A DNA stretch of 64,000 nucleotides from Mobula hypostoma (Eukaryota): assembly GCF_963921235.1 (NCBI RefSeq), contig NC_086097.1, positions 53,818,001 to 53,882,000 of the forward strand, given 5' to 3'. Of the stretch, positions 5,788 to 61,755 are shown in pieces. The notes under the pieces were generated by a model, which saw only the letters and a list, made by a program, of their open reading frames with translations, had not been told where the DNA came from and did no database searches. The position numbers and the translations under genes are program-made. The number at the start of each line of letters is the position of its first letter. The first letter of the stretch is position 1.

Positions 5788-6740
5788 GTTATTGACTGGT
5801 GTACAAAACAGGTCCTTCTTTGTTATGGGAAGTTAAGGGTTAATCTAAGTCATGTTCTTCAATCTAAGTTGATAAGCATTGCAGCAACATTACATAAATT
5901 CTAGTAGTTCTCAATGGGGTCATTCTGCAGAATTTTGTTTTGTTTTGGCACATGTATACTTTTAGAATAAATTATAGAGCCCTTAGTGTAGAAAAATGTG
6001 GCCACAAGATCTTGAAACCATTTACAATGTGCTATTTTCAAATTGATACCTTGATAAAAGAACAATGAAAGTGTTTGAAGCCAAAGTCACTCATCCTAAA
6101 AAGACCCAGACCTGATATGTTATTAAAGGGAATGCACAAAAAACTCATTCAGCCAAGCAAGAAAACCATCACAGTTAAATATGCCTCTTCCGCTCCCCTC
6201 AACAACAGCTGTACTTGCCCCGAACATTGGCACTGGTGGCACACAAGCAGAAAATACTGAAAATACTCAGTGGGCTGAGCAGCATCCTTGATAAAAGAAA
6301 AAAGTCCGACATTTCTGGTGACAGAACTAGTGGCACTAATGAATTGGGGTATAGGAATTTCTATGAAAATCACCAACAAAATATTGCACCCAGAATTCAA
6401 AAACTGAGATTTAAAAATTGAAGCTAATCTGCTTCATCTCTAACTGAACAGAAACAACAAAACAAACAGCAGCTATTCAATTCATAATTTTGAGATTTCT
6501 ATTGCCTGTGCTTATGCTTTCTCATTCTCCTCATTTCTGCTCATCCCACGTTCTACAAATCAAACCCAAATTAAGCTTTTCTTTGCCCTTCTATTCCCAG
6601 ACCAAATGGAGGAAAAATTGCAGACACAGAAAAGTACAAACTGTCATAATTGCATCTTTTCCATTATTTGTCCAATTGCAGGAATGTAACTTATCTGCAC
6701 AATGCACTTAAAAATCTCTGCTTGAAGTCTTTGTAAAGTA

Positions 6741-7253: not shown

Positions 7254-9109
7254 TAAATCATCAAAGTACAAAGTAAATCTATTGTCAAAGCACACTTATG
7301 TCACCATACACAACCCTGAGATTCAATTTCCTGTGGGCATTCTCAGTAAATCCAAGGACCATAATAAAATCAGTGAACATCCGCACCCAACAGTTCAGAC
7401 AAATGACCAATGTGTCAAAGACGACCAACTGTGTGAACCCAAACTAAATAAATAAATAAGCAATAAATATAGAGAAGAGTCTGGAAAGTGAATCCAAAGT
7501 ATGGTTCAGTGACGGGGCAACTGAAATTGAGTGAAGTTAACCGCATTGGTTCAAGAGCCTGATGGTTGAGGAGTAATAACTGCTCCTGAACCTGGTGGTG
7601 TGGGTCCTGAGGCTTCCGTACCTTCCTTATGGCAACAGTGAGAAGAGAGCATGATCTGAGCGGAGGGGGTCCATGATGCTTGGTGCTGCTTTCCCGTGAC
7701 AGCGCTCCATGTAGATGTAATCAATTGTGGGGAGGGCTTTACCCGTGATGGACTGGGAAGTATCTATTACTTTTTGTGGGATTTTACGTTCAAGAGCAGT
7801 GGTGTTTCCATACCTGACTGTGAAGCAACCAGTCAATATACTCACCACCACACATCTATAAATGTTTGTCAAAGTGTTAGATGTCACACCAAATCTTCAC
7901 AACTTCTAAGGAAGTAAAGGCACTGCCGTGCTTTCTTCATAATTGCACTTACGTGCTAAGCCCAGTACAGGTCCTCTGAAATAATAACACTGAGAAATTT
8001 CTAGTTGCTGACCCTCTACTCCTTTGTTCCACAGAACCAAATGGCTCATGGACCTCCTGAAGTCAATAATCAGCTCCTGGGTCTTGCTGACATTGAGTCA
8101 GAGGTTGCTGATGTTCCACCACTCAGGCAGATTTTCAATCTTTCTCCTATATGCTGATTCATCTCCACCTTTGATTTGGCCAGCGACAGTGGTGTCACCA
8201 GCAAACTTGAATATGGCATTGGAGCTGAGCTTAGCCACACAGTCATAAGTGTAAAGCGAGTAGAGCTGGGGGATAAGCACGCATCCCTGTGGTGCACCTG
8301 TGGTGATGGAGATTGTGGAGGAGATGTTGTTGCCAATCCAAACTGACTGTGGTCCGCCAGTGAGGAAATTGAGGATCCAACTTCACAAGGAGGTATTGAG
8401 GTCAAGGTCTTGGAGCTTATTGATTAGTTCTGAGGGGATGATGGCATTGAATGCTGATCTCTAGTTGATAAAGAGCATTCTGATGTATGCATCTTTGCTG
8501 TCCAGATGTTCCAGGGTTCAGTGAAGAGCCAATGAGGTGGGACCTGCTGTGGTCCTGTTGTTCCAGTAGGCAAATTGGAATGGATATAAGTCACTTCTCA
8601 GACAGGAGCTGATATGTTTCATTACCAACCTCTCAAAACAATTCTTCACAATGGATGTAGGTACAACTGGGTGATAGTCATTGTGTCAGTTTACAATGTT
8701 CTTCTTATGATTGAGACACGTGGGTATCTCCGAGCACCGAAGTGAAAAGTTAATGATCTCAGTGAACACTCCAGCCTGTCGATCAGCATAGGTGTTTAAT
8801 ACCCGGCCAAGTACCTCATCCGAGCCGGATGTTTTCCATCGGTTCACCCTCCTTAAGGATGCTCTCACGTTGACCTCAGAGACTGAAATCACAGGGTCAT
8901 CAGGTGCTTCACGAGGGTGCCTCCATGTTTTCAGGGTCAAAGCAGGCATTGAGCTTATCTGGAAACGCTGATTTCACTTTGTAAGAGGTGATAGTATAAA
9001 GCCCTGCCGCAGCTGTCAAAAATCCTTTATTGATTCAAGTTTAATCTGGAATTGTCACTTCGCCCCTGAGTTGGCTTTCCTGAGATCGTAGCTGGACCTT
9101 TTGTATCTT

Positions 9110-10055
9110 CCGCCACCTCCAACGGGATCCCACCACTAAGCACATCTTTCCCTCCCCCCCTCTCTCTGCATTCCGCAGGGATCACTCCCTACACAACTCC
9201 CTTGTCCATTCGTCCCCCCCATCCCTCCCCACTGATCTCCCTCCTGGCACTTATCCGTGTAAGCGGAACAAGTGCTACACATGCCCTTACACTTCCTCCC
9301 TTACCACCATTCAGGGCCCCAAACAGTCCTTCCAGGTGAGGCATCACTTCACCTGTGAGTCGACTGGGGTGATATACTGCGTCCGGTGCTCCCGATGTGG
9401 CCTTTTATATATTGGTGAGACCCGACGCAGACTGGGAGACCGCTTTGCTGAACATCTACGCTCTGTCCGCCAGAGAAAGCAGGATCTCCCAGTGGCCACA
9501 CATTTTAATTCCATATCCCATTCCCATTCTGACATGTCTATCCACGGCCTCCTCTACTGTAAAGATGAAACCACACTCAGGTTGGAGGAACAACACCCTA
9601 TATTCCGTCTGGGTAGCCTCCAACCTGATGGCATGAACATTGACTTCTCTAACTTCCGCTAGGCCCCACCTCCCCCTCGTACCCCAGCTGTTACTCCTTT
9701 TTATGCACACATTCTTTCTCTCACTCTCCTTTTTCTCCCTCTGTCCCTCTGAATATACCTCTTGCCCATCCTCTGGGTCACCCCCGCCCCCCGTCTTTCT
9801 CCCTAGGCCTCCTGTCCCATGATCCTCTCGTATCCCCTTTTGCCTATCACCTGTCCAGCTCTCGGCTCTATCCCTCCCCCTCCTGTCTTCTCCTATCATT
9901 TTGCATCTCCCCCTCCCCCTCCACCTTTCAAATCCCTTACTCACTCTTCCTTCAGTTAGTCCTGACGAAGGGTCTCGGCCTGAAACGTCGACTGCGCCTT
10001 TTCCTATAGATGCTGCTTGGCCTGCTGCGTTCACCAGCAACTTTGATGTATGTTG
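9110..10055 (+). mobile_element. 5'-truncated Penelope-like element (GIY-YIG endonuclease end plus terminal repeat)
   Basis: ORF 9336-9662 FTCESTGVIYCVRCSRCGLLYIGETRRRLGDRFAEH...GMNIDFSNFR is a GIY-YIG domain. Flanking direct repeat cttttgtatctt at 9098-9109 and 10056-10067. Confidence 0.93.
9958..9993 (+). ncRNA. Minimal type I hammerhead ribozyme motif of the PLE terminus
   Basis: agtc-CTGACGA-agggtctcggcct-GAAA-CGTC-gact: conserved CUGANGA and GAAA boxes, GUC triplet, helix I agtc/gact, loopless palindromic helix III (ACGT). Confidence 0.8.
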
Positions 10056-26584: not shown

Positions 26585-28068
26585 ATGTATCTATCTATTT
26601 AACATATCAGATGAGCTTCACCTAAAAGGTGTGGATTACATGCATGGACTGGCTGTACAGGTCAAACAGCAGGAAAAAACCTTAACCCAGTTGTGTGGTT
26701 TGATAGAACATCCTTGTTGGAGTGGACCAGTGAAAACTCAAATCGTAGTTATTTTTCAAAAAAATAGGAGCAAAGTTTAAAAAAGTTGAATACATAAATG
26801 TAAAAGAAATGGACATGAGCTTGCAATAATACGAAACATTTGATTGTGGATAAAGAGAATGTTTTGAGTTGATACATTGGGCAGCTTTAGCTTTGCACTA
26901 ATCAAAGGCAAGCATATTTTACAGGATTGCATTGCTTACATTCTCATGAGTTAGGAGAAAAGGCGACAGGATGAAAGCTTACTGACATAAAAGAATGGGA
27001 ACTGACGAGGCTGAATCACTTGGAATTACAACAGAGATAAACTGAATATCTACTGCAGAAATTCAGTCCTGATTGTAAGCCTTGATCTGGAACTGCAGAA
27101 ATTGATAAAGAATAAAACTACTACTGAAGCAATTGCAGTTCTGCAAATTTCAATTTAACAAAAATGGATTGAGACGATCATGTCTCTATTGCTAAGGGGC
27201 AGTGTGTATTAATCTAGTGCAAGTGCTTTATTACTCATGTTCTAAAAGACATGAACGGGATCAGAGTAATGTGACTGGGGAGGCCAGATCTCCAAATGTG
27301 GGTAAGACAGAGAATCAGTTCCATATTTCATTTCATAGGAATTAAAGAGGTTAAAAACAAAATCATCAAATTACAAAGACTTGGCCCCCAAAGACCCTTG
27401 GAGGGGTGGAATGCAGAAGCATAGATAACTTTGAGTACAGGAGAACTGCCTGGAGATTGGAGAAAGCTTTTTTTTTATAAAAGGGTAGCAAAAGTGGCAC
27501 AGGAAATGTACTTGAGAGACTTGTAATTCATTATTGGCTTATATGAATGGAAATTCTTATGAAAAAAAAAGACCGTAGGAAACATGGATAGATATAAAAT
27601 CATGAAAAGATAGTGTAGATTTTAATAATTTATCAAATCTACTGTCATTGAGATTTTGACAAAGGAACTTGAGAGGAATGAGATGTCAATGAGTTGGGTT
27701 TTAGTACACCTTATTGCACCTCTGTACTTCACAGTATCTCTGGACTGCTGGTACTGACGTATAAAATGGAGATCATATGAACATTTTATAATTATTGTAT
27801 AAAATGTAATCAGTTCTCCAATAGATGCCATAGGGTTATGGCAGTAAGTGTTATGCAGTGGGGTCATTAGAAAGCGTGAATAAAAATAAGCCAGGGACAA
27901 GCAGAGCAGCCATTGTGTGAGTGGGCCAGTGTCGGAGTAGCTTTGACTCATCAGGCTTCGGCGAGATCAGGATTGGGGGAGATAAGTATCTGGTAAGTTT
28001 TTTTCTTCTTCTTCGTCTTTATTCTTCATTCCTCATCTGTTACCGTACAGTGAGAATGGTTCCGGGGT

Positions 28069-28815
28069 AACACACATCAAAGTTGCTGGTGAACGCAGCA
28101 GGCCAGGCAGCATCTCTAGGAAGAGGTACAGTCGACGTTTCAGGCCGAGACCCTTCGTCAGGACTAACTGAAAGAAGAGCTAGTAAGAGATTTGAAAGTG
28201 GGAGGGGGAGGGGGAGATCCAAAATGATAGGAGAAGACAGGAGGGGGAGGGATGGAGCCAAGAGCTGGACAGGTGATTGGCAAAAGGGATACGAGAGGAT
28301 CATGGGACCGGAGGTCCGGGAAGAAAGACAAGGAGGCGGGGGGGGGGAAAACCAAAGGATGGGCAAGGGGTATATTAAGAGGGACAGAGGGAGAAAAAAG
28401 AGAGTGAGAGAAAGAATGTGTGTATAAAAATAAATAACAGATGGGGTACGAGGGGGAGGTGGGGCATTAGCGGAAGTTAGAGAAGTCGATGTTCATGCCA
28501 TCAGGTTGGAGGCTACCCAGACGGAATATAAGGTGTCATTCCTCCAACCTGAGTGTGGCTTCATCTTGACAGTAGAGGAAGCCGTGGATAGACATGTCAG
28601 AATGGGAATGGGATGTGGAATTAAAATGTGTGTCCACTGGGAGATCCTGCTTTCTCTGGCGGACAGAGCGTAGATGTTCAGCAAAGCGGTCTCCCAGTCT
28701 GCGTCGGGTCTCGCCAATATATAAAAGGCCACATCGGGAGCACCGGACGCAGTATATCACCCCAGTCGACTCACAGGTGAAGTGTCGCCTCACCTGGAAG
28801 GACTGTTTGGGGCCC
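28069..28815 (-). mobile_element. 5'-truncated Penelope-like element (GIY-YIG plus terminus)
   Basis: ORF 28536-28793 GVIYCVRCSRCGLLYIGETRRRLGDRFAEH; near-identical to 9315-10055; inserted in CR1 ORF1; no clear TSD. Confidence 0.93.
28130..28165 (-). ncRNA. Minimal hammerhead ribozyme motif, intact core
   Basis: Minus strand agtc-CTGACGA-agggtctcggcct-GAAA-CGTC-gact. Confidence 0.8.
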
Positions 28816-30227
28816 AGATAACCACACCTGCATCAGGTGCATCAAGCTGCAACTCCTCAGAGAATGTGTAAAACAATTGGAGCTGCAGTTCGATGACCTT
28901 CAGCTCGTAGGGACATTGAGGAGGTGATGGATAGGAGCTACAGAGAGGTAATTACCCCGAGGCTGCAGGAGGCAGGAGGCAGGAGACTGGGTGACTGTCA
29001 GGAGAAGGAAGAGAAATGGGCAGCCAGTGCAGTGTACCCCTGTGGCCATTCCCCTCAATAATAAGTGTATCACTTTGAATACTGTTGAGGAGGACAACCT
29101 ACTTGGGGAAGGGAGGCCACAGAAACTGGATTCCTGGTACTGTGGCTCAAAAGAGAAGAGAGTTAAAGAGGACTGGAGGACTGCAGTAGTAGTGACTGGA
29201 GATTCCATAGTCAGAGGAACGGAGATGAGATTCTGTGGACACGACAGAGACACCTGAGTGGAATGTTGCCTCCCAGGTGCCAAGGTCAGGGACGTCTTGG
29301 ATCTGGTCCATGGCATTCTAAACGGGGAGGATCAGCAGCCAAGAGCCTGGGTAGATATTAGTACCAATTACATAAGGAGGAAATGTGAGGAGGTCCTGAA
29401 GAGAAATTTAAGGGAGCTAGGTAGAAAGCTGAAAAGCAGGACCTCCAGGCTGGTAACATCTGAATTGCTGCATGTGCCACGTGCCAATAAGGGTACGATT
29501 ATAATGATTTGGCAGGTGGCAGATGAGTGGCTGAGGACCTGCTGCAGGGGGCAGGCATTCAGATTTATGGATCATTGGCATCTCTACTAAGGAAGATACG
29601 AACTGTATGAAAGAGACTGGTTACACCTGAACCTGAGGGGGACCAATATCCTTTTGGGCAGGTTTGCTGGAGCTGTTTGGGAGGGTTTATACTAATTTGG
29701 CAGGGGACGTGAACCGGAGTGATAAGGCTGAAGAGGACGGAGTGGTTTACAGACAGAGGCATTGTGTAATGAGATTGCTAGCAAGGAGAGTCTGAATATA
29801 GGGTAAAATTGCAGTCAGCAGTGAGTTGACATGCAAAAGGGGGGAAATTGAAAAGGGTGATGAACACAGGGTTGAAGAAGTTATATTTGAATGTACATAG
29901 TATTTGGAATAAGGTAGATGAAGTAGTAGCACAGTTATAGATTGTCATGTATGATGTCATGGGCATCACTGAATCATGGCTGAAAGATGATAGCTGGGAG
30001 CTTAACATCCAAGGATGCAGATTTTATAGAAAGAACAGACAGGTAAACAAAGGGGTGGGGTGGCTCTGGTGGTAAAAATTTAATCAAATCCTCAGAAAGA
30101 AGTGACAAAGGGTTAGAAGTTGGAGAATCATTGTGGGTAGAACAAAATAACTACAAGGGTAAAAAGACTCTGATGGGAGTTATATACAGATCTCCAAACA
30201 ATAGCAAAGATGTGAGCTACAAATTAG

Positions 30228-33282: not shown

Positions 33283-33534
33283 CACACATAAAAGTTGCTG
33301 GTGAACGCAGCAGGCCAGGCAGCATCTCTAGGAAGAGGTGCAGTCGACGTTTCAGGCTGAGACCCTTCGTCAGGACTAACTTCAACTCTTCCTTCAGTTA
33401 GTCCTGACAAAGGGTCTCGGCCTGAAACATTGACTGCACCTCTTCCTAGAGATGCTGCCTGGCCTGCTGTGTTCACCAGCAACTTTTATGTGTGTTGCTT
33501 GAATTTCCAGCATCTGCAGAATTCCTGTTGTTTG
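33283..33534. mobile_element. Fold-back (palindromic) mini-Penelope element with hammerhead motifs on both strands
   Basis: Arms 33283-33381 and ~33396-33494 are reverse complements; ~40-nt extension on the right; TSD agcccatcaagtct (33269-33282) / agcccgtcaagtct (33535-33548). Confidence 0.92.
33342..33377 (-). ncRNA. Minimal hammerhead ribozyme motif, intact core (opposite-arm copy 33400-33435 is mutated)
   Basis: Minus agtc-CTGACGA-agggtctcagcct-GAAA-CGTC-gact; the plus arm has CTGACAA and GAAACATT. Confidence 0.72.
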
Positions 33535-33914
33535 AGCCCGTCAAGTCTGTTCTGCAGAATCTTTAACGGTTAAACTTTTTAGTTTAAGATGGCCCTGGTG
33601 AACTTCAGTGACCTCTGGCTGGTGGCTAATGAAACAATGAAAACAACTAAATATTTTGTTAATCTCTTTTTCTAGTAAACAATCATCACAAGCAATAGAC
33701 TGTTACTTCTGTTTGGACATGGAAGCAATTCAACGTGGCAGAACTGAGACAAGGCAGTGGGCCCGTCACCGAGAGTGGTGGAGACCCAAGGCGCGATCGA
33801 TTTAAGCGCCGGGCCGAAGCGGAAAGGCTGGGCACAGGCCAAATTGAGGTGGTGGAGTCCAGGCTCCAGAACGTAACAAAGTGACTGAACCCGATGTTTC
33901 GACGGCGATTTAGA

Positions 33915-35709
33915 GTCCAGTCCCTATATACTTCCATCCCCCATCAGGAAGGTCTCAAAGCTCTCCGCTTCTTTTTGGATTCCAAACCTAATCAGTTCCC
34001 CTCTACCACCACTCTGCTCCATCTAGCGGAATTAGTCCTTACTCTTAATAATTTCTCCTTTGGCTCCTCCCACTTCCTCCAAACTAAAGGTGTAGCCATG
34101 GGCACCCGTCCCAGCTATGCCTGCCTTTTTGTTGGCTTTGTGGAACAATCCGTGTTCCAAGCCTATACCGGTATCCGTCCCCGACTTTTCCTTCGCTATA
34201 TTGACGACTGCATTGGCGCTGCTTCCTGCACGCATGCTGAGCTTGTTGACTTCATTAACTTTGCCTCCAACTTTTCACCCTGCCCTCAAGTTTACCTGGT
34301 CCATTTCCGACACCTCCCTCCCCTTTCTAGATCTTCCTGTCTCTATCTCTGGAGACAGCTTATCTACCGATGTCCACTATAAGCCTACTGACTCTCACAG
34401 CTATCTGGACTATTCCTCTTCTCACCCTGTCTCTTGCAAAAACACCATCCCCTTCTCGCAATTCCTCCGTCTCCGCCGCATCTGCTCTCAGGATGAGGCT
34501 TTTCATTCCAGGATGAAGGAGATGTCTTCCTTTTTTAAAGAAAGGGGCTTCCCTTCCTCCACCATCAACTCTGCTCTCAAACGCATCTCCCCCATTTCAC
34601 GCACATCTGCTCCCACTCCATCCTCCCGCCACCCTACTAGGAAAAGGGTTCCCCTCATCCTCACCTACCACCCCACCAGCCTCTGGGTCCAACATATTAT
34701 TCTCTAAAACTTCTGCCACCTCCAATGGGATCCCACCACTAAGCACACCTTTTCCTCCCCCCCCCACGCTTTCCGCAGGGATCGCTCCCTACGCAACTCC
34801 CTTGTCCACTCGTCCTCCCCCATCCCTCCCCACCAATCTCCCTCCTGGCACATATCCTTGTAAGTGGAACAAATGCTACACATGCCCTTACACTTCCTCC
34901 CTCACTACCATTCAGGGCCCCAGACAGTCCTTCCAGGTGAGGCGACACTTCACCGTGAGTCAGCTGGGGTGATATACTGCGTCCGGTGCTCCCGATGCGA
35001 CCTTCTATATATTGGCGAGACCTGACGCAAACTGGGAGACAGTTTCGCTGAACACCTACGATCTGTCCGCCAGAGAAAGCAGGATCTCCCAGTGGCCACA
35101 CATTTTAATTCCACGTCTCATTCTCATTCTGATATGACTATCCACAGCCTCCTCTACTGTCAAGATGAAGCCACACTCAGGTTGGCAGAACAACACCTTA
35201 TATTCTGTCTGGGTAGCCTCCAACCTGATGACATGAACATTGACTTCTCAAACTTCCGCTAATGCCCCACCTCCCCCTCGTACCCCATCCGTTATTTATT
35301 TATTTATATTCACACATTCTTTTTCTCTCTCTCCTTTTTCTCCCTCTGTCCCTCTCACTATACCCTTTGCCCATCCTCTGGGCTTTCCCTCCTTCCCCCT
35401 TTTCTTTCTCCCTGGGCCTCCTGTCCCATGATCCTCTCATATCCTTTTTGCCAATCATCTGTCCAGCTCTTGGCTCCATCCCTCCCCCTCCTGTCTTCTC
35501 CTATCATTTTGGATTTGGATCTCCCCCTCCCCCTCCCATTTTCAAATCTCTTACTAACTCTTCCTTCAGTTAGTCCTGGCAAAGGATCTCGGCCCGAAAC
35601 GTCGACTGTACCTCTTCCTAGAGATGCTGCCTGGCCTGATGCATTCGCCAGCAACTTCTGTCTGTGTTGCTTGAAATTCCAGCATCTGCAGATTTCCTCG
35701 TGTTTGCGA
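33915..35709 (+). mobile_element. 5'-truncated Penelope-like element (RT, GIY-YIG and terminus), frameshifted
   Basis: VQSLYTSIPH..QTKGVAMGT..FLRYIDD (33894-34382); LPFLDL..HYKPTDSHSYLDYSSSHP..IPFSQFLRLRRICS (34117-34707); GIY-YIG remnant ~34935-35260; TSD atttaga at 33908-33914 and 35710-35716; hammerhead box mutated (CTGGCAA). Confidence 0.94.
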
Positions 35710-37439: not shown

Positions 37440-38390
37440 GGGAAAACTATTGACTCTTGTTCAGAAATTTGAGAGGAGTGAGTCAGCAAGTGGAGAAATT
37501 GGGCAGGTATTTAAACATGACCGGTGGAATCCCACAAGGACCAGTGCTGTGGCTGTTAGCTTTCCTCATGTATATTAATGACTTGGATGATCAGATAGAA
37601 AGTCACATTACCAAATTTGCTGATAGCTTAAGGGCAGATTGTAAGCAGTGCTGATAGAAGCACAGGGTTACTAAGAAATATTAATAGATCAATACAATGG
37701 GCAGATCTGTGACAAATGAATGTCAATGCAAGTTAACTGATTTTGGACCTTACACAAGATAGAACCAAGTACTTCAAAAAATGGAGCTTCACAAAGACAA
37801 CACACATAAAAGTTACTGGTGAACGCAGCAGGCCAGGCAGCATCTCTAGGAAGAGGTACTGTCGACGTTTCGGGCTGAGACCCTTCGTCAGACTTTTATG
37901 TGTGACGCTTAAAATTCCAGCACCTGCAGATTTCCTCATGTTTGGGCTTCACAAAGACAGATGGATCTTTATATAGATAGATAACTAAAAATAGCTTGGA
38001 TAGGTGCAGAAGATAATCAAGAGGGATAAAGAAACGACGTTTTTTTTAAACCTTCAGAGGATTGAACACAAAAGTTCAACTTTACAAAGTCCTGATTAGA
38101 CTATACTAGTAAATATTTCTGGTCACCACGTGAGGACTTTGGAGGGAGATTACCAAAATGGGACAAGTCTCCAAGAATTCAATCAGGAAAAAAAATTGTA
38201 TAAACTATGACTGCACTGTCTGGAATTTAGAAGGTTAAGGATTGACTTCATTGAAGTTTTCAAGATATTAAGGGGAACTGATTTGGTAGATAGAGAGAAA
38301 TTATTTCTGCTGGTTGGATAATCTCTGGGGACATGGTCTAAAAATTAGAGCCAGGCCTTTTCGGAATGAAGTTGGAAACACTCTGCATTT
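37440..38390 (+). mobile_element. Old degenerate CR1 RT fragment
   Basis: ORF 37457-37654 GGIPQGPVLWLLAFLMYINDLDDQIESHITKFAD. Confidence 0.8.
37800..37945. mobile_element. Collapsed fold-back mini-Penelope element (most of one arm deleted)
   Basis: Left arm with hammerhead boxes on the minus strand joins directly to acttttatgtgtg plus the extension; exact 14-bp TSD gcttcacaaagaca at 37786-37799 and 37946-37959. Confidence 0.88.
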
Positions 38391-39214: not shown

Positions 39215-39775
39215 AGAGCAAAAATAAACAAACTGCTGGAGGAAGTCAGCGGGCCGAGGAGCTTCTGTGGGAAGAGAGGAACTACAAACGTTTCAGGTAG
39301 GGTTAATGTATCACAAGCAAGAGTTCACAGGGAGGAACTCCAGGAGGAGATGTGGAGGAGTATGGTGACAACCAGTAGTCAATAGGGTGGATTGAGGAAG
39401 GGTGCAGGATGGTGGGAGGAAGTGGCAGGTTGTGGTGGTGGTGGGGGCAGGGGTGTTTTACTGCCCATCATCCTTCATCCCTTCTTGGTTCACATACAAG
39501 CCCAGCTCTCACTCCTTGTGATCTCCTTTTTATACCAACTACCTTCCCTCCCCATCTTCAGCGCTGATGCAAAATCTCCACCCAAAATGTCAACCATTCC
39601 TCACCCCTCACGCCCCCACACACACACAGATACTGCTTTGTGTGGGTTGCTCTGGTTTTTCAGCATCTGCAGAATCTCTTGTGTTTATGATTTACTGCTT
39701 GATTTGCAGAGTCCCTCCAGCATTTTGCTCTTTGCTTCAATTTCCAGCATCTGCAGCCTGTTCTGTCTCCATTTG
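39215..39775. mobile_element. Old degenerate inverted Penelope termini
   Basis: aactgctggaggaagtcagc...aaacgtttcag on the left; ctgatgcaaaatctccacccaaaatgtcaac and two cagcatctgcag extensions on the right. Confidence 0.55.
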
Positions 39776-45624: not shown

Positions 45625-45744
45625 TGCAACACACACACACACACACACACACGCAAAATGCTGGAGGAACTCAGCAAGAATGGCAGCATCAATGGAGGGG
45701 AATAAACAGTCAACGTTTCAGACCAAGACACTTCATCAGGACTG
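45625..45744 (-). mobile_element. Isolated Penelope terminus with hammerhead boxes and an expanded (CA)n
   Basis: Minus cagtc-CTGATGA-agtgtcttggtct-GAAA-CGTT-gactg at 45707-45744; helix II is degenerate. Confidence 0.75.
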
Positions 45745-52157: not shown

Positions 52158-53970
52158 CATTTGCAAGTAACTTGGACTAAAACATGGATTGGTGGGTTAG
52201 TAAGTTTATAGACATCCAAAGATTAGTTGCATTGTGGATAGTAGCAAAGAATACATTTATGTCAGCATATAGATAAGTTACAATTACGGGCAGGGAAATG
52301 GCATCCAGCCAAATGTGAGCTGTTACAATTTGGAAGTTCAAAGTATAAGGTAAATTTTATTATCAATGTGCATATGTCACCTTACACAACCCTGAGATTC
52401 TTTTTCTTGTGGGCATACGCAACAAATGTATAGAATAGCAACTATATTAGAATCAATAAAAGACTGCCCAAGAGAGCTATAAATCAGAGTGCAGAAGACA
52501 ATAAACTGTGTAAATTCCAAAAGAAGAAACAATAATATAAATAAATAAGCAATAAATACCAAAAACATGAGATGAAGATTACTTGAAAGTGAGTCCAATG
52601 GTGATGGGCAAGTGAAGCTGAGTGGTTATCCCCTTCATTCAAGAGCTGGGTGGTTGAGTGGTGGTAACTGTTCCTGAACCTGGCGGTGTGAGTTCTGAGG
52701 CTCCTGTACCTTCTTCCTGATGGCAGCAGCAAGAAGAGAGCACGTCCTGGGTGGTGGGGGTCCTTGACAATGGATGCTGCTTTCCTACAGCAGCATTTCT
52801 TGTAGATGTGCTCAATGGTTGGGGGGGGCGGGAGGTGGGGTGGTCGGGGCTTTACCTGCGATGGGCTGGGCTGTATCCACTACTTTTTGCAGGATTTTCC
52901 ATTCATCGTCATTGGTGCTTCCATACCAGACTGTGATACAGCCAGTTACTATACTGTCCACCACACATCTATAGAAGTTTGTCAAAGTTTTAGATGTCAT
53001 GCCATATCTCCACAAACTCTTAAGGAAGTAGAGACCCTGCTGTGCTTTCTTCATTATTGCACTTATGTGCTGGGCCCAGGATGGGTCCTCTGAAATAACA
53101 CCGAGGAAATTAAAGTTGCTCACCCTCCACCTCTGATCCCCGGATGAGGACTGGCTCATGGACCTCTGGTCTCCTTCTCTTTAAGTCTATAATCAGCTCC
53201 TTTGTCTTGTGAATATTAATTAAGAGGTTGTTGTTATGACGTCACTCAGCCAGATTTTCAATCTCCCTTCTGTTTGCTGATTCACCACCACCTTTGATTC
53301 AGCCAACAACAGTGGTATGATCAGCAAACTTGAATATGGCATTGGAGCTGTGCTTAGCCACACAGTCGTAAGTGTAAAGCGAATAGAGCAGAGGGCTAAG
53401 CACACAGTCTTGTGGTTGCACCAAGAGATGGAGATTATTTAGGAGATGTTGTTGCCAGTCTGAACTGACTGGGGTCTGCAAGTGAGGAAAAAAGATCCAG
53501 TTGCACAAGGAAGTATTGAGATGAAGGTCTTGGAGCTTATTGATTAGTTTTGAGGGGATGATGGTATTGAATACTGAGCTTTAGTCAATAAAAAGCATCC
53601 TGATGTATGCATCTTTGCTATCCAGATGTTCCAGGGTAGTGTGAAGAGCCAATGAGATGGCATCCTTTGTGGACCTGTTGTTCCGGTAGGCAAATTGGAA
53701 CAGGCCTAAGTTGCTTCTCAGACAGAAGTTGATATGTTTCATCACCAAACTCTCAAAACACTTCATCACTGTGGGTGTAAGTGCTACTGGACAACAGTCA
53801 TTGAGGCAAGTCACCATGCTCTTCTTGGGCACTGGTATACTTGAAGCCTGCTTGAAGCAGGTGGGTAAACTGTTGAAGTGAGAGGTTAAAGATCTCAGTG
53901 AACACACCAGCCAGTTGATCAGCACAGGTACCTGGTCTGGGCCACATGCTTTTGGAGGGTTCACCCTTTT

Positions 53971-55403: not shown

Positions 55404-56126
55404 ACACAAAATGCTGGAGGAACTCAGTGGACCAGGCAGTATCTATGGAAAAAGAGTACAGTTAAGATGTTTCAGTCCGAGACCCTTCATCAGCACTGGG
55501 AAAAAAAGATGTGGAGTCAGAATAAGAAAGTGGGGGGGAGGGGAGGAAGAACCACAAGGTGATAGGTGAAACCGAGGGGACCGAGGGGAGGGAGGGGTGA
55601 AGTAAAGAGCTGGAAAGTTGATTGGTGAAAGAGATACAGGGATGGAGAAGTGGGAATCTACTAGGAGAGGATAGAAGGATTAGGAAGAAAGAAAAGGGGT
55701 AGGAGCACCAGATGGAGGAGATAGACAGGTAAGAGGATAAGGTGAGAGAGAGGAATGAGATTGGGGAATGGTGAAGGGGTGGCATTACCAGAAGTTCGAG
55801 AAATTGATGTTCTTCTTCACCATTCTTCACCATTCCCCATTTCCATTTTCTGCTTATCACCAATCAACTTCCCAGCTCTTTACTTCACCCCCTCCCCACC
55901 TTTGGTTTCACCTATCACCATGTGTTTCTTCCTCCCTCCCCCACTTTCTTACTCTGACTCATCTTTTTTTCCAGTCCTGATGAAGGGTCTCGGACTGAAA
56001 CATCTTGGACCAAAACATTGACTGCACTTTTTTCCATAGATGCTGCCTCACCTGCTGTGTTCCTCCAGCATTTTGTGTGTGTGTGTGTTGCTTGGATTTC
56101 CAGCATCTGCAGATTTTCTCTTGTGA
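55404..56126. mobile_element. Large fold-back Penelope element of a second subfamily
   Basis: Left arm (minus, to ~55813, including the ORF end NINFSNFW*) is inverted against the right arm plus extension; CTGATGA..GAAAC boxes on both strands; TSD atgattttgtggc (55391-55403) / atgatttagtggc (56127-56139). Confidence 0.88.
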
Positions 56127-58719: not shown

Positions 58720-60905
58720 CCTACTACCTGCACACAGACAGAGCCAAAAGAGCAAGGCTCCAGAGATCAAGACAACTCAGAGGTGATCACAGAGGCAGAA
58801 GTACGGTTACAGGATTGCCTTGAGTCAGTGGACCAGGCCGTGTTCAGGAACTCATCTGAATGACTACACCAGGGTGGATACAGACTTTATTAGAAAATCT
58901 ATGGTGAGCGTGTTCCTACAAAATCATTCAGGGTTTCCCCCATTCAGCCATGGATGAACAATGAAATCCGGAACCTGCTGAGAGCCAGGTCAGAGGATTC
59001 AAGTCCAGAGATCAAGAATGCTACAAGAGGTGTAGGTATGATCTCCGGAAAGCATCTCTTGGGCAAAGTAGAGATTCCAGACTAGACCAGAATCAACGAG
59101 GGATGCTTGACAGGTGTGGCAGTGTTTCAATGTCATAAGCTCATACAATGTTAAATTTTGTGACATAGGGGTCAGCAGAGCTTCACTTCCAGATGAACTC
59201 AGAGCTCACCTTGACCACCAGAACAGGGGAGAACGATTGCACACCCCTATGATCCTTTGGTCTCAGTATCTGTAGATGACTTGCAGGCTGCCCTCAAGAG
59301 AGGGAATCCAAGGAAAGCATCCGGTCCGGGCAGAGTACCTGGCTGAGTACTGAAGATCTCTGTTGACCAAATGGCTGAAGTATTCATCGATATCTTCAAC
59401 CTCTTGCCCTCTTGCTCTGGTAGTGTGTGGTACCCCCCCCCCCCCCCGCCGCCCCGGCTTCAAGCTGGCTTCAATCACACCGGTACCCAAGAAGAGCATG
59501 GTAACCTGTCAAAATAACTATCACCCAGTGGCATTTACATCCACATGACGAAGTGTTTTGAGAGGCTGGTGTTGAAGCACATCAGCTCCTGTCTGAATGG
59601 TGACTTGGATCCGCTCCAATTCGCCTACCAAAGCAACAGGTCTACAGCAGATGCCATCTCATTGGCTCTTCACACAACGCTGGAACATCTGGACAGCAAA
59701 GGTGCATACTTCTCTTGTTCGATTACAACTCGACATTTAATATCATCATCCCCTCAAAACTAATAAGCAAGTCCAAGATCTGGGTTTCAATACACCCTTG
59801 TGCAATTGGATCCTGGATTTCCTCACTTGCAGACCCCAGTTTGAATTGGCAAAAACATCTTCTCCACAATCTCCATCAGCACAGGAGCACCACAGGGATG
59901 AGTACGTAGCCCCTGCTCGACTCACTTTACCCCTATGACTGTGTGGTTACGTACAGCTCCAACACCGTATACAAGTTTGCTAATGACACCATTGTTGTGG
60001 GCTGTATCAAAGGGGGTGATGAATCAGCATGCAAGACAGAGATTGAAAATTTGGCTTGGTGGTGTAATAACAACAACTGTTCATTCAATGTCAATAAGAC
60101 CAAGACTTGTAGACTTCAGGAAAGGGAAACCAGAGGTCCATGAGCCAGTAATCATCGGAGGATCAGAGGTGAAGAGGGTCAGTAACTTTAAATTCCTGGG
60201 TGTCACTATCTCAGGGGACCTGTCCTGAACCCATCATATAAATATAATTGCAAAGAAAGCACGACAGCATCTCTACTTCCTCAAGAGTCTGTGGAGATCT
60301 GGCATGTCATCAACAACCTTGGCAAATTTCTATAGACGTGTGGTGGAAAGTGTGCTGACTGCCTGCATTGCAGCCTGGTAGGGAAACACCAATGCCTTTG
60401 AGAGGAAAATACTACAAAAGGTAGTAGATTTGGCCCAGTACATCACAGGTAAAACCCTCCCAACCATTGTGCACATCTACATGAAACATTGCCATAGAAA
60501 AGTAGCATCCATCATCAAAGATTTCTCACCACCCAGGCCATGCTCTTTTCTCGCTGCTGCCATCAGGTAGGAGGTACAGGTGCCTCAGGACTTACACCAC
60601 CAGGTTCAAGAACAGTTACTACCCCTCAACCAACAGGCTCTTGAACAAAAGGGGATAGCTACACTCATTTAAGAACTACTTTATTTTGTTATTTCATGCT
60701 CTATATTTATTGCTATTTATTTATATCTGCATTTGCACAGTTTGTTTACAGTTCCTGATGTTTACAGTTTACAGATCCTGTTTACAGTTACTGTTCTATA
60801 GATTTGCTAACTATGCCCACAGAAAAAGAATCGCAGGGTTGTATGTGGTGATATGTATGTACTCTGATAATAAATTTTACTTTGAATTTTGAACGTTGAC
60901 TTTGA
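58720..60905 (+). mobile_element. Rex1/Babar LINE, 5'-truncated and degenerate
   Basis: ORFs 59363-59548, 59545-59763 (KCFERLVLKHI..DPLQFAYQSNRSTADAI), 59943-60143 (YKFANDTIVVG); tail actttgaattttgaac. Confidence 0.92.
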
Positions 60906-61482: not shown

Positions 61483-61755
61483 CGCAAACACGAGGAATTC
61501 TGCAGATGCTGGAAATTCAAGCAACACACATCAAAGTCGCTGGTGAACGCAGCAGGCCAGGCAGCATCTCTAGGAAGAGGTACAGTCGACGTTTTGCACC
61601 GAGACCCTTCGTCAGGACTAACTGAAGGAAGAGCTAGTAAGAACTCTTCCTTCAGTTAGTCCTGACGATGGGTCTCAGCCCGAAACGTCGACTGTACCTC
61701 TTCCTACAGATGCTGCCTGGCCTGCTGCATTCACCAGCAACTTTGATATGTGTTG
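61483..61755. mobile_element. Fold-back mini-Penelope element with hammerhead motifs on both strands
   Basis: Extension on the left; arms ~61522-61633 and ~61644-61755 are reverse complements; TSD ttttggagaaggt (61470-61482) / ttttgcagaaggt (61756-61768). Confidence 0.92.
61658..61693 (+). ncRNA. Minimal hammerhead ribozyme motif, intact core (opposite arm has GAAA>AAAA)
   Basis: agtc-CTGACGA-tgggtctcagccc-GAAA-CGTC-gact. Confidence 0.75.

Follow-up and report, generated by a model that had tools for sequence, protein, structure and literature searches.

Head-to-head Penelope-like element insertions with hammerhead motifs in a ray genome: probable products of separate integrations

Four short insertions in a 64,000-nt stretch of the Mobula hypostoma genome (contig NC_086097.1, positions 53,818,001 to 53,882,000; here called the window) each consist of two inverted copies of one end of a Penelope-like element (PLE). 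Are these insertions, L1 to L4, copies of a palindromic family that propagates itself, or was each one made separately during integration? And do the hammerhead motifs in their arms still act as ribozymes? Our answer to the first question is that each locus is probably a TSD-flanked, head-to-head pair of 5'-truncated PLE ends with one tail, made afresh in one integration and dead since. Where we compare the loci with published systems below, the comparison covers the accessible portions of the papers cited.

The window has a GC content of 41.7% and is rich in transposon remains, among them LINE RT and endonuclease frames, one DDE fragment and several PLE pieces. A scan with a terminal-module profile gave 16 hit rows and one with a tail profile seven strong hits, and the reversed window gave 0 with each. 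The 5'-truncated parent copy at 9110-10055 (+) carries a CX4CxxC linker, a GIY-YIG domain, the 3' UTR and the hammerhead; it is tail-less and has a 12-14 bp TSD. A second 5'-truncated copy, at 28069-28818 (-), is also tail-less, gave a negative TSD search, and lies within the monomer used below as a reference for contigs. The longest copy of the window (33915-35709, +) retains a broken RT piece with YIDD, the linker, the endonuclease, the UTR, a broken hammerhead motif and the tail; no inverted partner was seen for it and its candidate TSD is not significant. None of the TSD candidates of the copies at 28069, 33915, 39220 and 45629 rose above the background of random position pairs.

The endonuclease of the parent can be read in the frame at 9084-9659, which matched the Pfam GIY-YIG family at E 3e-4 and 21.3 bits, slightly below the cut-off of 22.6, and in which VIY-C-x2-C-YIG is readable. 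Its two best matches are ray proteins with 82-92% identity, while shark proteins match at 50-67% (12 hits among 395 candidates). The linker in this frame, CKRNKCYTC, fits the CX2-5CxxC motif upstream of GIY-YIG, which PMC8557442, in the portion available, gives as a Neptune/Nematis trait missing in Penelope and Poseidon. Judged by this motif, the parent appears to be of the Neptune/Nematis type; a Poseidon parent was considered and rejected on the same motif. YIDD occurs in a broken frame (33885-34382) and is contiguous with the endonuclease in the shark and ray homologues; Pfam gave no RT match. The arms of the insertions are 87-89% identical to the 3' end of copy 33915-35709, and the PLE origin proposed in a first-pass annotation of this DNA is supported: the four loci are insertions of EN+ PLE ends, with a GIY-YIG-bearing parent in the same window. 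Some further observations concern the same surroundings. Three ray gene models (P0003, P0004 and P0010) include the endonuclease region of the window's PLE and are named as host genes, namely a kinase-domain protein, mucin-2 and a chitinase-domain protein; this reflects either exonisation or an annotation error. Another repeat, of 1.5 kb, is present in three copies that are 73-74% alike (7261-8793, 52338-53929 and 59454-60894). Two old solo terminal modules lie on the minus strand, at 45625-45744 and 6265-6318, and the former begins at -4 and has a (TG)n run at its end.

The limits that had been proposed for the four insertions hold at every locus (4/4) and give lengths of 252, 146, 723 and 273 nt for L1 to L4. 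So do the TSDs of 13-14 bp: 14 bp with one mismatch at L1 (33269-33282 and 33535-33548), 14 bp without mismatch at L2 (37786-37799 and 37946-37959), and 13 bp with one mismatch at both L3 (55391-55403 and 56127-56139) and L4 (61470-61482 and 61756-61768). Their scores are 11, 14, 10 and 10, compared with a maximum of 9 among 150 random position pairs. The inverted PLE termini and the one-sided extension are likewise found at 4/4 loci: the arms lie head to head, their 5' ends inward, and one stops at the GTGTG boundary while its partner carries a tail of 40-44 nt.

Within this common plan the arms differ in extent. At L1, the tail-less arm (33283-33381, -) starts 8 nt upstream of hammerhead position C3 and has an intact minimal motif at 33373-33346, and the tailed arm (33384-33534, +) starts at -18 to -20, has a broken motif at 33404-33431 and ends in the tail at 33493-33534. 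At L2, the tail-less arm (37800-37891, -) starts at C3 (0 to -3) and keeps the boxes and GUC, and the tailed arm (37892-37945, +) is made up of 13 nt of terminus plus the tail, without a hammerhead. L3 derives from an older subfamily. Its tail-less arm (55404-55812, -; motif at 55493-55466) is 409 nt long and takes in the last ORF codons and the stop (NINFSNFW*), so that the description of the insertions as non-coding and miniature fails here; its tailed arm (55813-56126, +) is 314 nt long, with an internal deletion, 13 nt inserted behind its motif (55977-56004), and the tail at 56086-56126. At L4 the order is reversed: the tailed arm (61483-61642, -) starts at -27 and contains a broken motif (61615-61588) and the tail (61483-61526), and the tail-less arm (61644-61755, +) starts at -18 and has an intact motif (61662-61689). 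A fifth inverted insertion, older and decayed, lies at 39220-39775, with a minus arm at 39229-39297 and a plus arm with two tandem copies of the tail; its tail, too, is one-sided. Counting it, there are five inverted units per 64 kb.

The motifs follow the layout AGUC-CUGANGA-N-stem II-GAAAC-GUC-GACU and have no stem III, the layout published for the minimal hammerheads of metazoan PLEs (PMC4209133), with which they share the type I form, a palindromic ACGU at 15.2-16.2 and one unpaired base before stem II. The monomer copy has the CUGANGA and GAAA boxes, an NUH triplet and stems I and II at 28161. An Rfam search gave no hammerhead match up to E 1 and three unrelated weak matches, and the hammerhead pattern occurred at 0 loci in metagenome contigs and 0 in viral contigs. 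Matches to the tail pattern at 16 metagenome loci were set aside as chance, their likeness never reaching beyond 16-30 nt around the pattern.

The proposal that there is a hammerhead on each strand did not survive inspection of the individual motifs: two of seven are intact (L1 minus and L4 plus), and an intact pair is found at none of the four loci. The L1 plus motif reads CUGACAA, with G8 lost, and has an altered cleavage triplet; the L4 minus motif has AAAA in place of GAAA and a broken stem II. Both motifs of L3 retain their boxes with stem I lost (0-1 bp), and the single motif of L2 has stem I reduced to 1 bp. A hairpin of about 100 bp from either strand had also been proposed, and this stands for L1, L3 and L4 (z of -19 to -30) but not for L2, where the inverted piece is 13 bp long (z of -2.2 and -2.7). 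Forcing the hammerhead fold would cost 46-65 kcal/mol in L1, L3 and L4, compared with 8.9 and 9.7 kcal/mol for a pair of monomer copies and 10.4 kcal/mol for L2. No motif has a same-sense partner within its locus, and on either strand the antisense arm is transcribed ahead of the motif. In the work on metazoan PLEs one minimal motif alone did not cleave and a same-sense partner was needed (PMC4209133), and the anole hammerhead motif required protein to cleave (PMC11167929). Because of the fold cost, the mutated motifs, the missing same-sense partner and the failure of the lone motif in PMC4209133, self-cleavage at L1 to L4 is unlikely, and with it the idea that they supply self-cleavage sites: a transcript of L1, L3 or L4 would present the antisense arm first, which would pair over the motif and bury it in a long duplex, so that dsRNA rather than self-cleavage is predicted. 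Directly 5' of the hammerhead in the 35-kb copy is a 7-bp inverted repeat, ACTAACT/AGTTAGT, with an 8-nt loop (35553-35574, +; -23 to -2), which overlaps the 5' strand of stem I and could form a rival fold to the ribozyme or act as a snap-back primer.

Do the four loci descend from one palindrome? The annotation had asked for the turn points to be tabulated, and the arm starts relative to C3 (tailed/tail-less) are -18/-8 at L1, +78/0 at L2, -283/-319 at L3 and -27/-18 at L4, which amounts to four different turn points in four loci and speaks against a single palindromic family. The alleles at +19, +33 and +83 differ as well, being T-C-T at L1, C-T-T at L2 and C-T-G at L4, with L3 belonging to the other, older subfamily. 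Sister arms carry the same alleles in 7/7 comparisons, an agreement with a chance of 0.005 if sites are independent and 0.04 if one site is counted per locus. From this pattern of alleles, each locus had a template of its own that served for both arms. The sister arms of L1 differ at 5/99 nt, all of CpG type, and one of these changes removes G8; those of L4 differ at 9/109 nt, four of CpG type, and are mismatched at -19, adjoining the junction.

We also looked for such junctions in contigs of four public sequencing runs (two DNA, two guessed to be RNA), aligned to the monomer at 27990-28880 rather than to L1-L4. The evidence on joints comprises the best-supported 15 of at least 660 joints and 12 of 308 filler rows, and short contigs may hide a high-copy junction. 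Strand changes account for 4/15 of the best-supported joints, at four different coordinate pairs with one contig each. Among the best-supported 15 of at least 660 joints there was no dominant strand-change joint, and none of the four strand changes corresponds to the junctions of L1, L2 or L4. One strand-change joint, in DNA run X1, has a depth of 80, where the arm depths sum to about 1.5e7. Some junctions do recur: filler rows that join 28164/28165 to 28129, on the two strands of stem I, reach depths of 67-146, compared with 9-15 for most long pieces. In run X15, a contig of depth 1673 has a strand change between 28122 and 28164.

These observations bear on the idea of a fixed palindromic family, retrozyme-like or MITE-like, in which whole copies come from master elements. 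L1 and L4 are close in length, at 252 and 273 nt, each with an arm that starts at -18, and a few junction rows are deeper than single-copy pieces, as such a family might predict. Against it stand the separate junction and allele set of each of the four loci, the tail on one side only, the absence of same-sense tandem hammerheads and the lack of a dominant joint among the best-supported 15 of at least 660. MITEs are uniform in length and have symmetric terminal inverted repeats; here the tail makes the ends asymmetric and lengths vary. Retrozymes have two or more head-to-tail units with same-sense hammerheads and a fixed common monomer; here all four loci are head to head, and there are four lengths (252/146/723/273 nt), four junctions and four allele sets. 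A fixed palindromic family is therefore largely refuted, and we regard it as very improbable; the retrozyme-like, self-propagating family that the annotation offered as one of its two readings falls with it. Its refutation test was nonetheless too strict, as varied turn points exclude a fixed palindrome but not a tailed arm that is mirrored again at each insertion.

How, then, would separate integrations give inverted pairs? By analogy with an anole element, the PLE enzyme probably primed from both target strands. The protein of Anolis Poseidon PAc cuts and extends both target strands in vitro, its reverse transcription starts at two neighbouring sites that flank the tail, and insertion does not depend on hammerhead cleavage (PMC11167929). 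We suppose that the RT-endonuclease would cut the target with a stagger of 13-14 nt, that both target 3' ends would be extended with element RNA as template, starting at the tail end on one strand and at the GTGTG boundary on the other, that synthesis of both cDNAs would end prematurely, in many cases at a favoured site immediately 5' of the hammerhead, and that repair would join them with 0-2 shared or added bases. Priming on two strands, one at each start site, would yield a head-to-head pair with a single tail and a TSD set by the stagger. Since then the sister arms have drifted apart, mostly through CpG decay that reached the hammerhead core.

The main competitor of double priming is cDNA fold-back, in which one cDNA, begun at the tail, ends close to the hammerhead, folds onto itself and serves as its own template as far as the GTGTG boundary, where the endonuclease resolves the product. 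Self-priming has been put forward for PLE inverted junctions (PMC3846280), the alleles common to sister arms fit it, and the 7-bp inverted repeat directly upstream of the hammerhead, as well as stem I, itself an inverted repeat, might serve as primer. The tailed arm is the longer one in L1 and L4, where the arms are joined within 0-2 nt, and these two loci are compatible with both routes. The tail-less arm, however, reaches farther upstream at L2 (92 nt against 13 nt plus tail) and at L3 (-319 against -283), and because of this longer tail-less arm these loci fit double priming and not one self-copying cDNA, barring later deletion. Neither L1 nor L4 is the exact product of priming on the 7-bp hairpin, and purified anole protein extends both target strands (PMC11167929). 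Fold-back is on these grounds unlikely. The annotation's other reading, fold-back products of abortive integration, is thus upheld as far as it made the loci per-site products of PLE integration, while strict self-copying cannot yield L2 and L3 without later deletion. Double priming has weak points of its own: the sample is only four loci, five with the decayed one, the in vitro data come from a Poseidon element whereas the parent here has a Neptune/Nematis linker, the L4 arms are mismatched right beside their junction, and later deletions, such as the one present in the right arm of L3, could have produced the longer tail-less arms of L2 and L3. PAc belongs to the Poseidon clade, which is without the linker Zn finger, and the accessible part of PMC11167929 does not show the formation of head-to-head products. 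According to PMC8557442, as far as available, how PLEs form inverted units is still undefined.

Where the arms begin may also be informative. Six of the 12 arm starts that could be placed, from 4/8 insertions, fall within -27 to 0 of C3, a clustering with a per-insertion chance of 0.002-0.017 under exponential truncation for an interval picked post hoc; the count leaves out the copies at 6265-6318 and 39220-39775, which are too decayed. Summed contig depth is also higher over the terminal module than just upstream, by 1.7-1.9x in the two DNA runs and 3.7-4.4x in the two runs guessed to be RNA. Position 28165 (-4) is a listed loose-end site in all four runs, and because the loose letters there show poor agreement (0.38-0.49) and look like the tract found in other subfamilies, part of this step is owed to subfamily divergence and not to truncation.

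A preferred stop could arise if the RT runs off the 5' end of the RNA, if it stalls at stem I or at the 7-bp hairpin, or if a splice landmark lies there. The Penelope element of D. virilis has an internal promoter, with the transcription start in the upstream pLTR (PMC2377424), and its intron end maps to helix I (PMC4209133). In both subfamilies here, a stretch resembling a 3' splice site lies just 5' of the hammerhead (9936-9961, 35550-35575 and 55947-55976, all +), with a branch-like yUnAy at -23/-19 (TACTAAC in the 35-kb copy; variants CTAAC, CTCAC and CTGAC), a pyrimidine tract and YAG at -7/-3, and several arm starts lie close to these branch-like and YAG landmarks. The same branch/tract/YAG rule is satisfied by 51/4089 YAG in the window, and the UTR is 79% pyrimidine. 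A strong GT donor was not found in the young UTR, and no minus-strand CT..AC skip occurs among the best-supported 15 of at least 660 joints. The splice landmark beside the hammerhead is a lead only.

Two further ideas build on the arm starts. Under the first, non-autonomous mini-templates, short tailed arms beginning at the RNA 5' end and carrying an internal promoter, would be mobilised in trans and mirrored anew at each insertion, and this rebuilding would make the turn points vary. It fits the 6/12 arm starts at -27 to 0 and the deeper contigs over the terminal module, the internal promoter in the D. virilis Penelope pLTR (PMC2377424), and the report that mobilisation in trans requires nothing but the pLTRs in cis (PMC3846280). 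Run-off from full-length transcripts, however, gives the same clustering; other subfamilies diverge at the very position of the depth step and so confound it; the mini-arm alleles are shared with long copies (3/92 nt differ between the L1 tail-less arm and the 28-kb copy); and the anole RNA is active only with the initial 172 nt of the ORF, more than the tail supplies (PMC11167929). We consider mini-templates of this kind quite unlikely. The second idea, more speculative than established and on balance doubtful, is that the arm ends record a discrete landmark on the PLE RNA immediately upstream of the hammerhead, either a transcription start or, next to helix I as in D. virilis, a spliceosomal branch point with its 3' acceptor, that a dimeric enzyme primed on two strands runs off at this landmark, and that tailed mini-arms may be templates mirrored again at each insertion.

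Much of this pattern is already known. The canonical EN+ PLE unit has an adjacent inverted, 5'-truncated copy and a one-sided tail of 30-40 bp (PMC8557442, PMC3846280, PMC2377424), and the loci here share with it head-to-head arms of variable size, a tail at one end, a TSD and a hammerhead in the terminal repeat. They differ from it in that each arm is reduced to about 55-400 nt of the element's end and a full ORF is missing from between the two, in their high density, and in TSDs of 13-14 bp as against 8-10 bp in rotifer cases. Opposite-strand hammerhead pairs 100-700 bp apart are reported in Schistosoma (PMC4209133); cartilaginous-fish minimal hammerheads and the anatomy of opposite-strand pairs are not described in the accessible part of that paper. 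Non-LTR retrozymes (PMC7229834; bioRxiv 10.64898/2026.07.22.740005) are similarly small, non-coding and PLE-related, with a type I hammerhead and a long TSD, but they repeat one fixed monomer in head-to-tail tandem, and their hammerheads, all in the same sense, release circular RNA, whereas the loci here are head to head and variable, with one motif per strand. In our literature search, which was confined to main texts and took in few subscription papers, so that detail may exist elsewhere, we found no publication dealing specifically with mini-palindromes of this sort in cartilaginous fish and, within the same limits, none on PLE twin priming or on branch points next to a hammerhead. As truncated copies in inverted order, a tail on one side and hammerheads paired on opposite strands are all known, the loci here are a real and abundant new instance of a largely known pattern.

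Might the host nevertheless keep these palindromes, as cleavage sites or as regulatory dsRNA? Long duplexes are predicted at L1, L3 and L4, which, if transcribed, are a possible dsRNA source. Places with T>C on the plus strand (A>G in element sense) are commoner in the runs guessed to be RNA than in the DNA runs, at 21/103 versus 12/132 and 14/92 versus 7/117 across the family (Fisher p 0.02 and 0.04), or about 2.5-fold in odds for runs X15 and X17 over the monomer 27990-28880. This is a weak hint of A-to-I editing that is not tied to L1-L4: the excess is not locus-specific, alleles or subfamily sampling may explain it, and incidental editing would not show function. CpG decay, moreover, struck the catalytic core, compensatory changes between arms are absent and five of seven motifs are damaged. 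Pfam revealed no host exon in the 149/238 unmasked frames of at least 55 aa, a scan that short exons escape, and its sole match was a LINE endonuclease. Retention for a host function seems hardly credible, and the four loci look like decaying by-products that, at most, give ray transcripts a large, incidental supply of dsRNA. Their value is as material for the mechanism of PLEs: in units this dense, short, young and TSD-flanked, counts of arm length could separate double priming from fold-back, and the arm starts may show where the template RNA begins. If the arm ends do record a landmark on that RNA, the very many ray copies would chart both the PLE template and the function of its hammerhead base by base.
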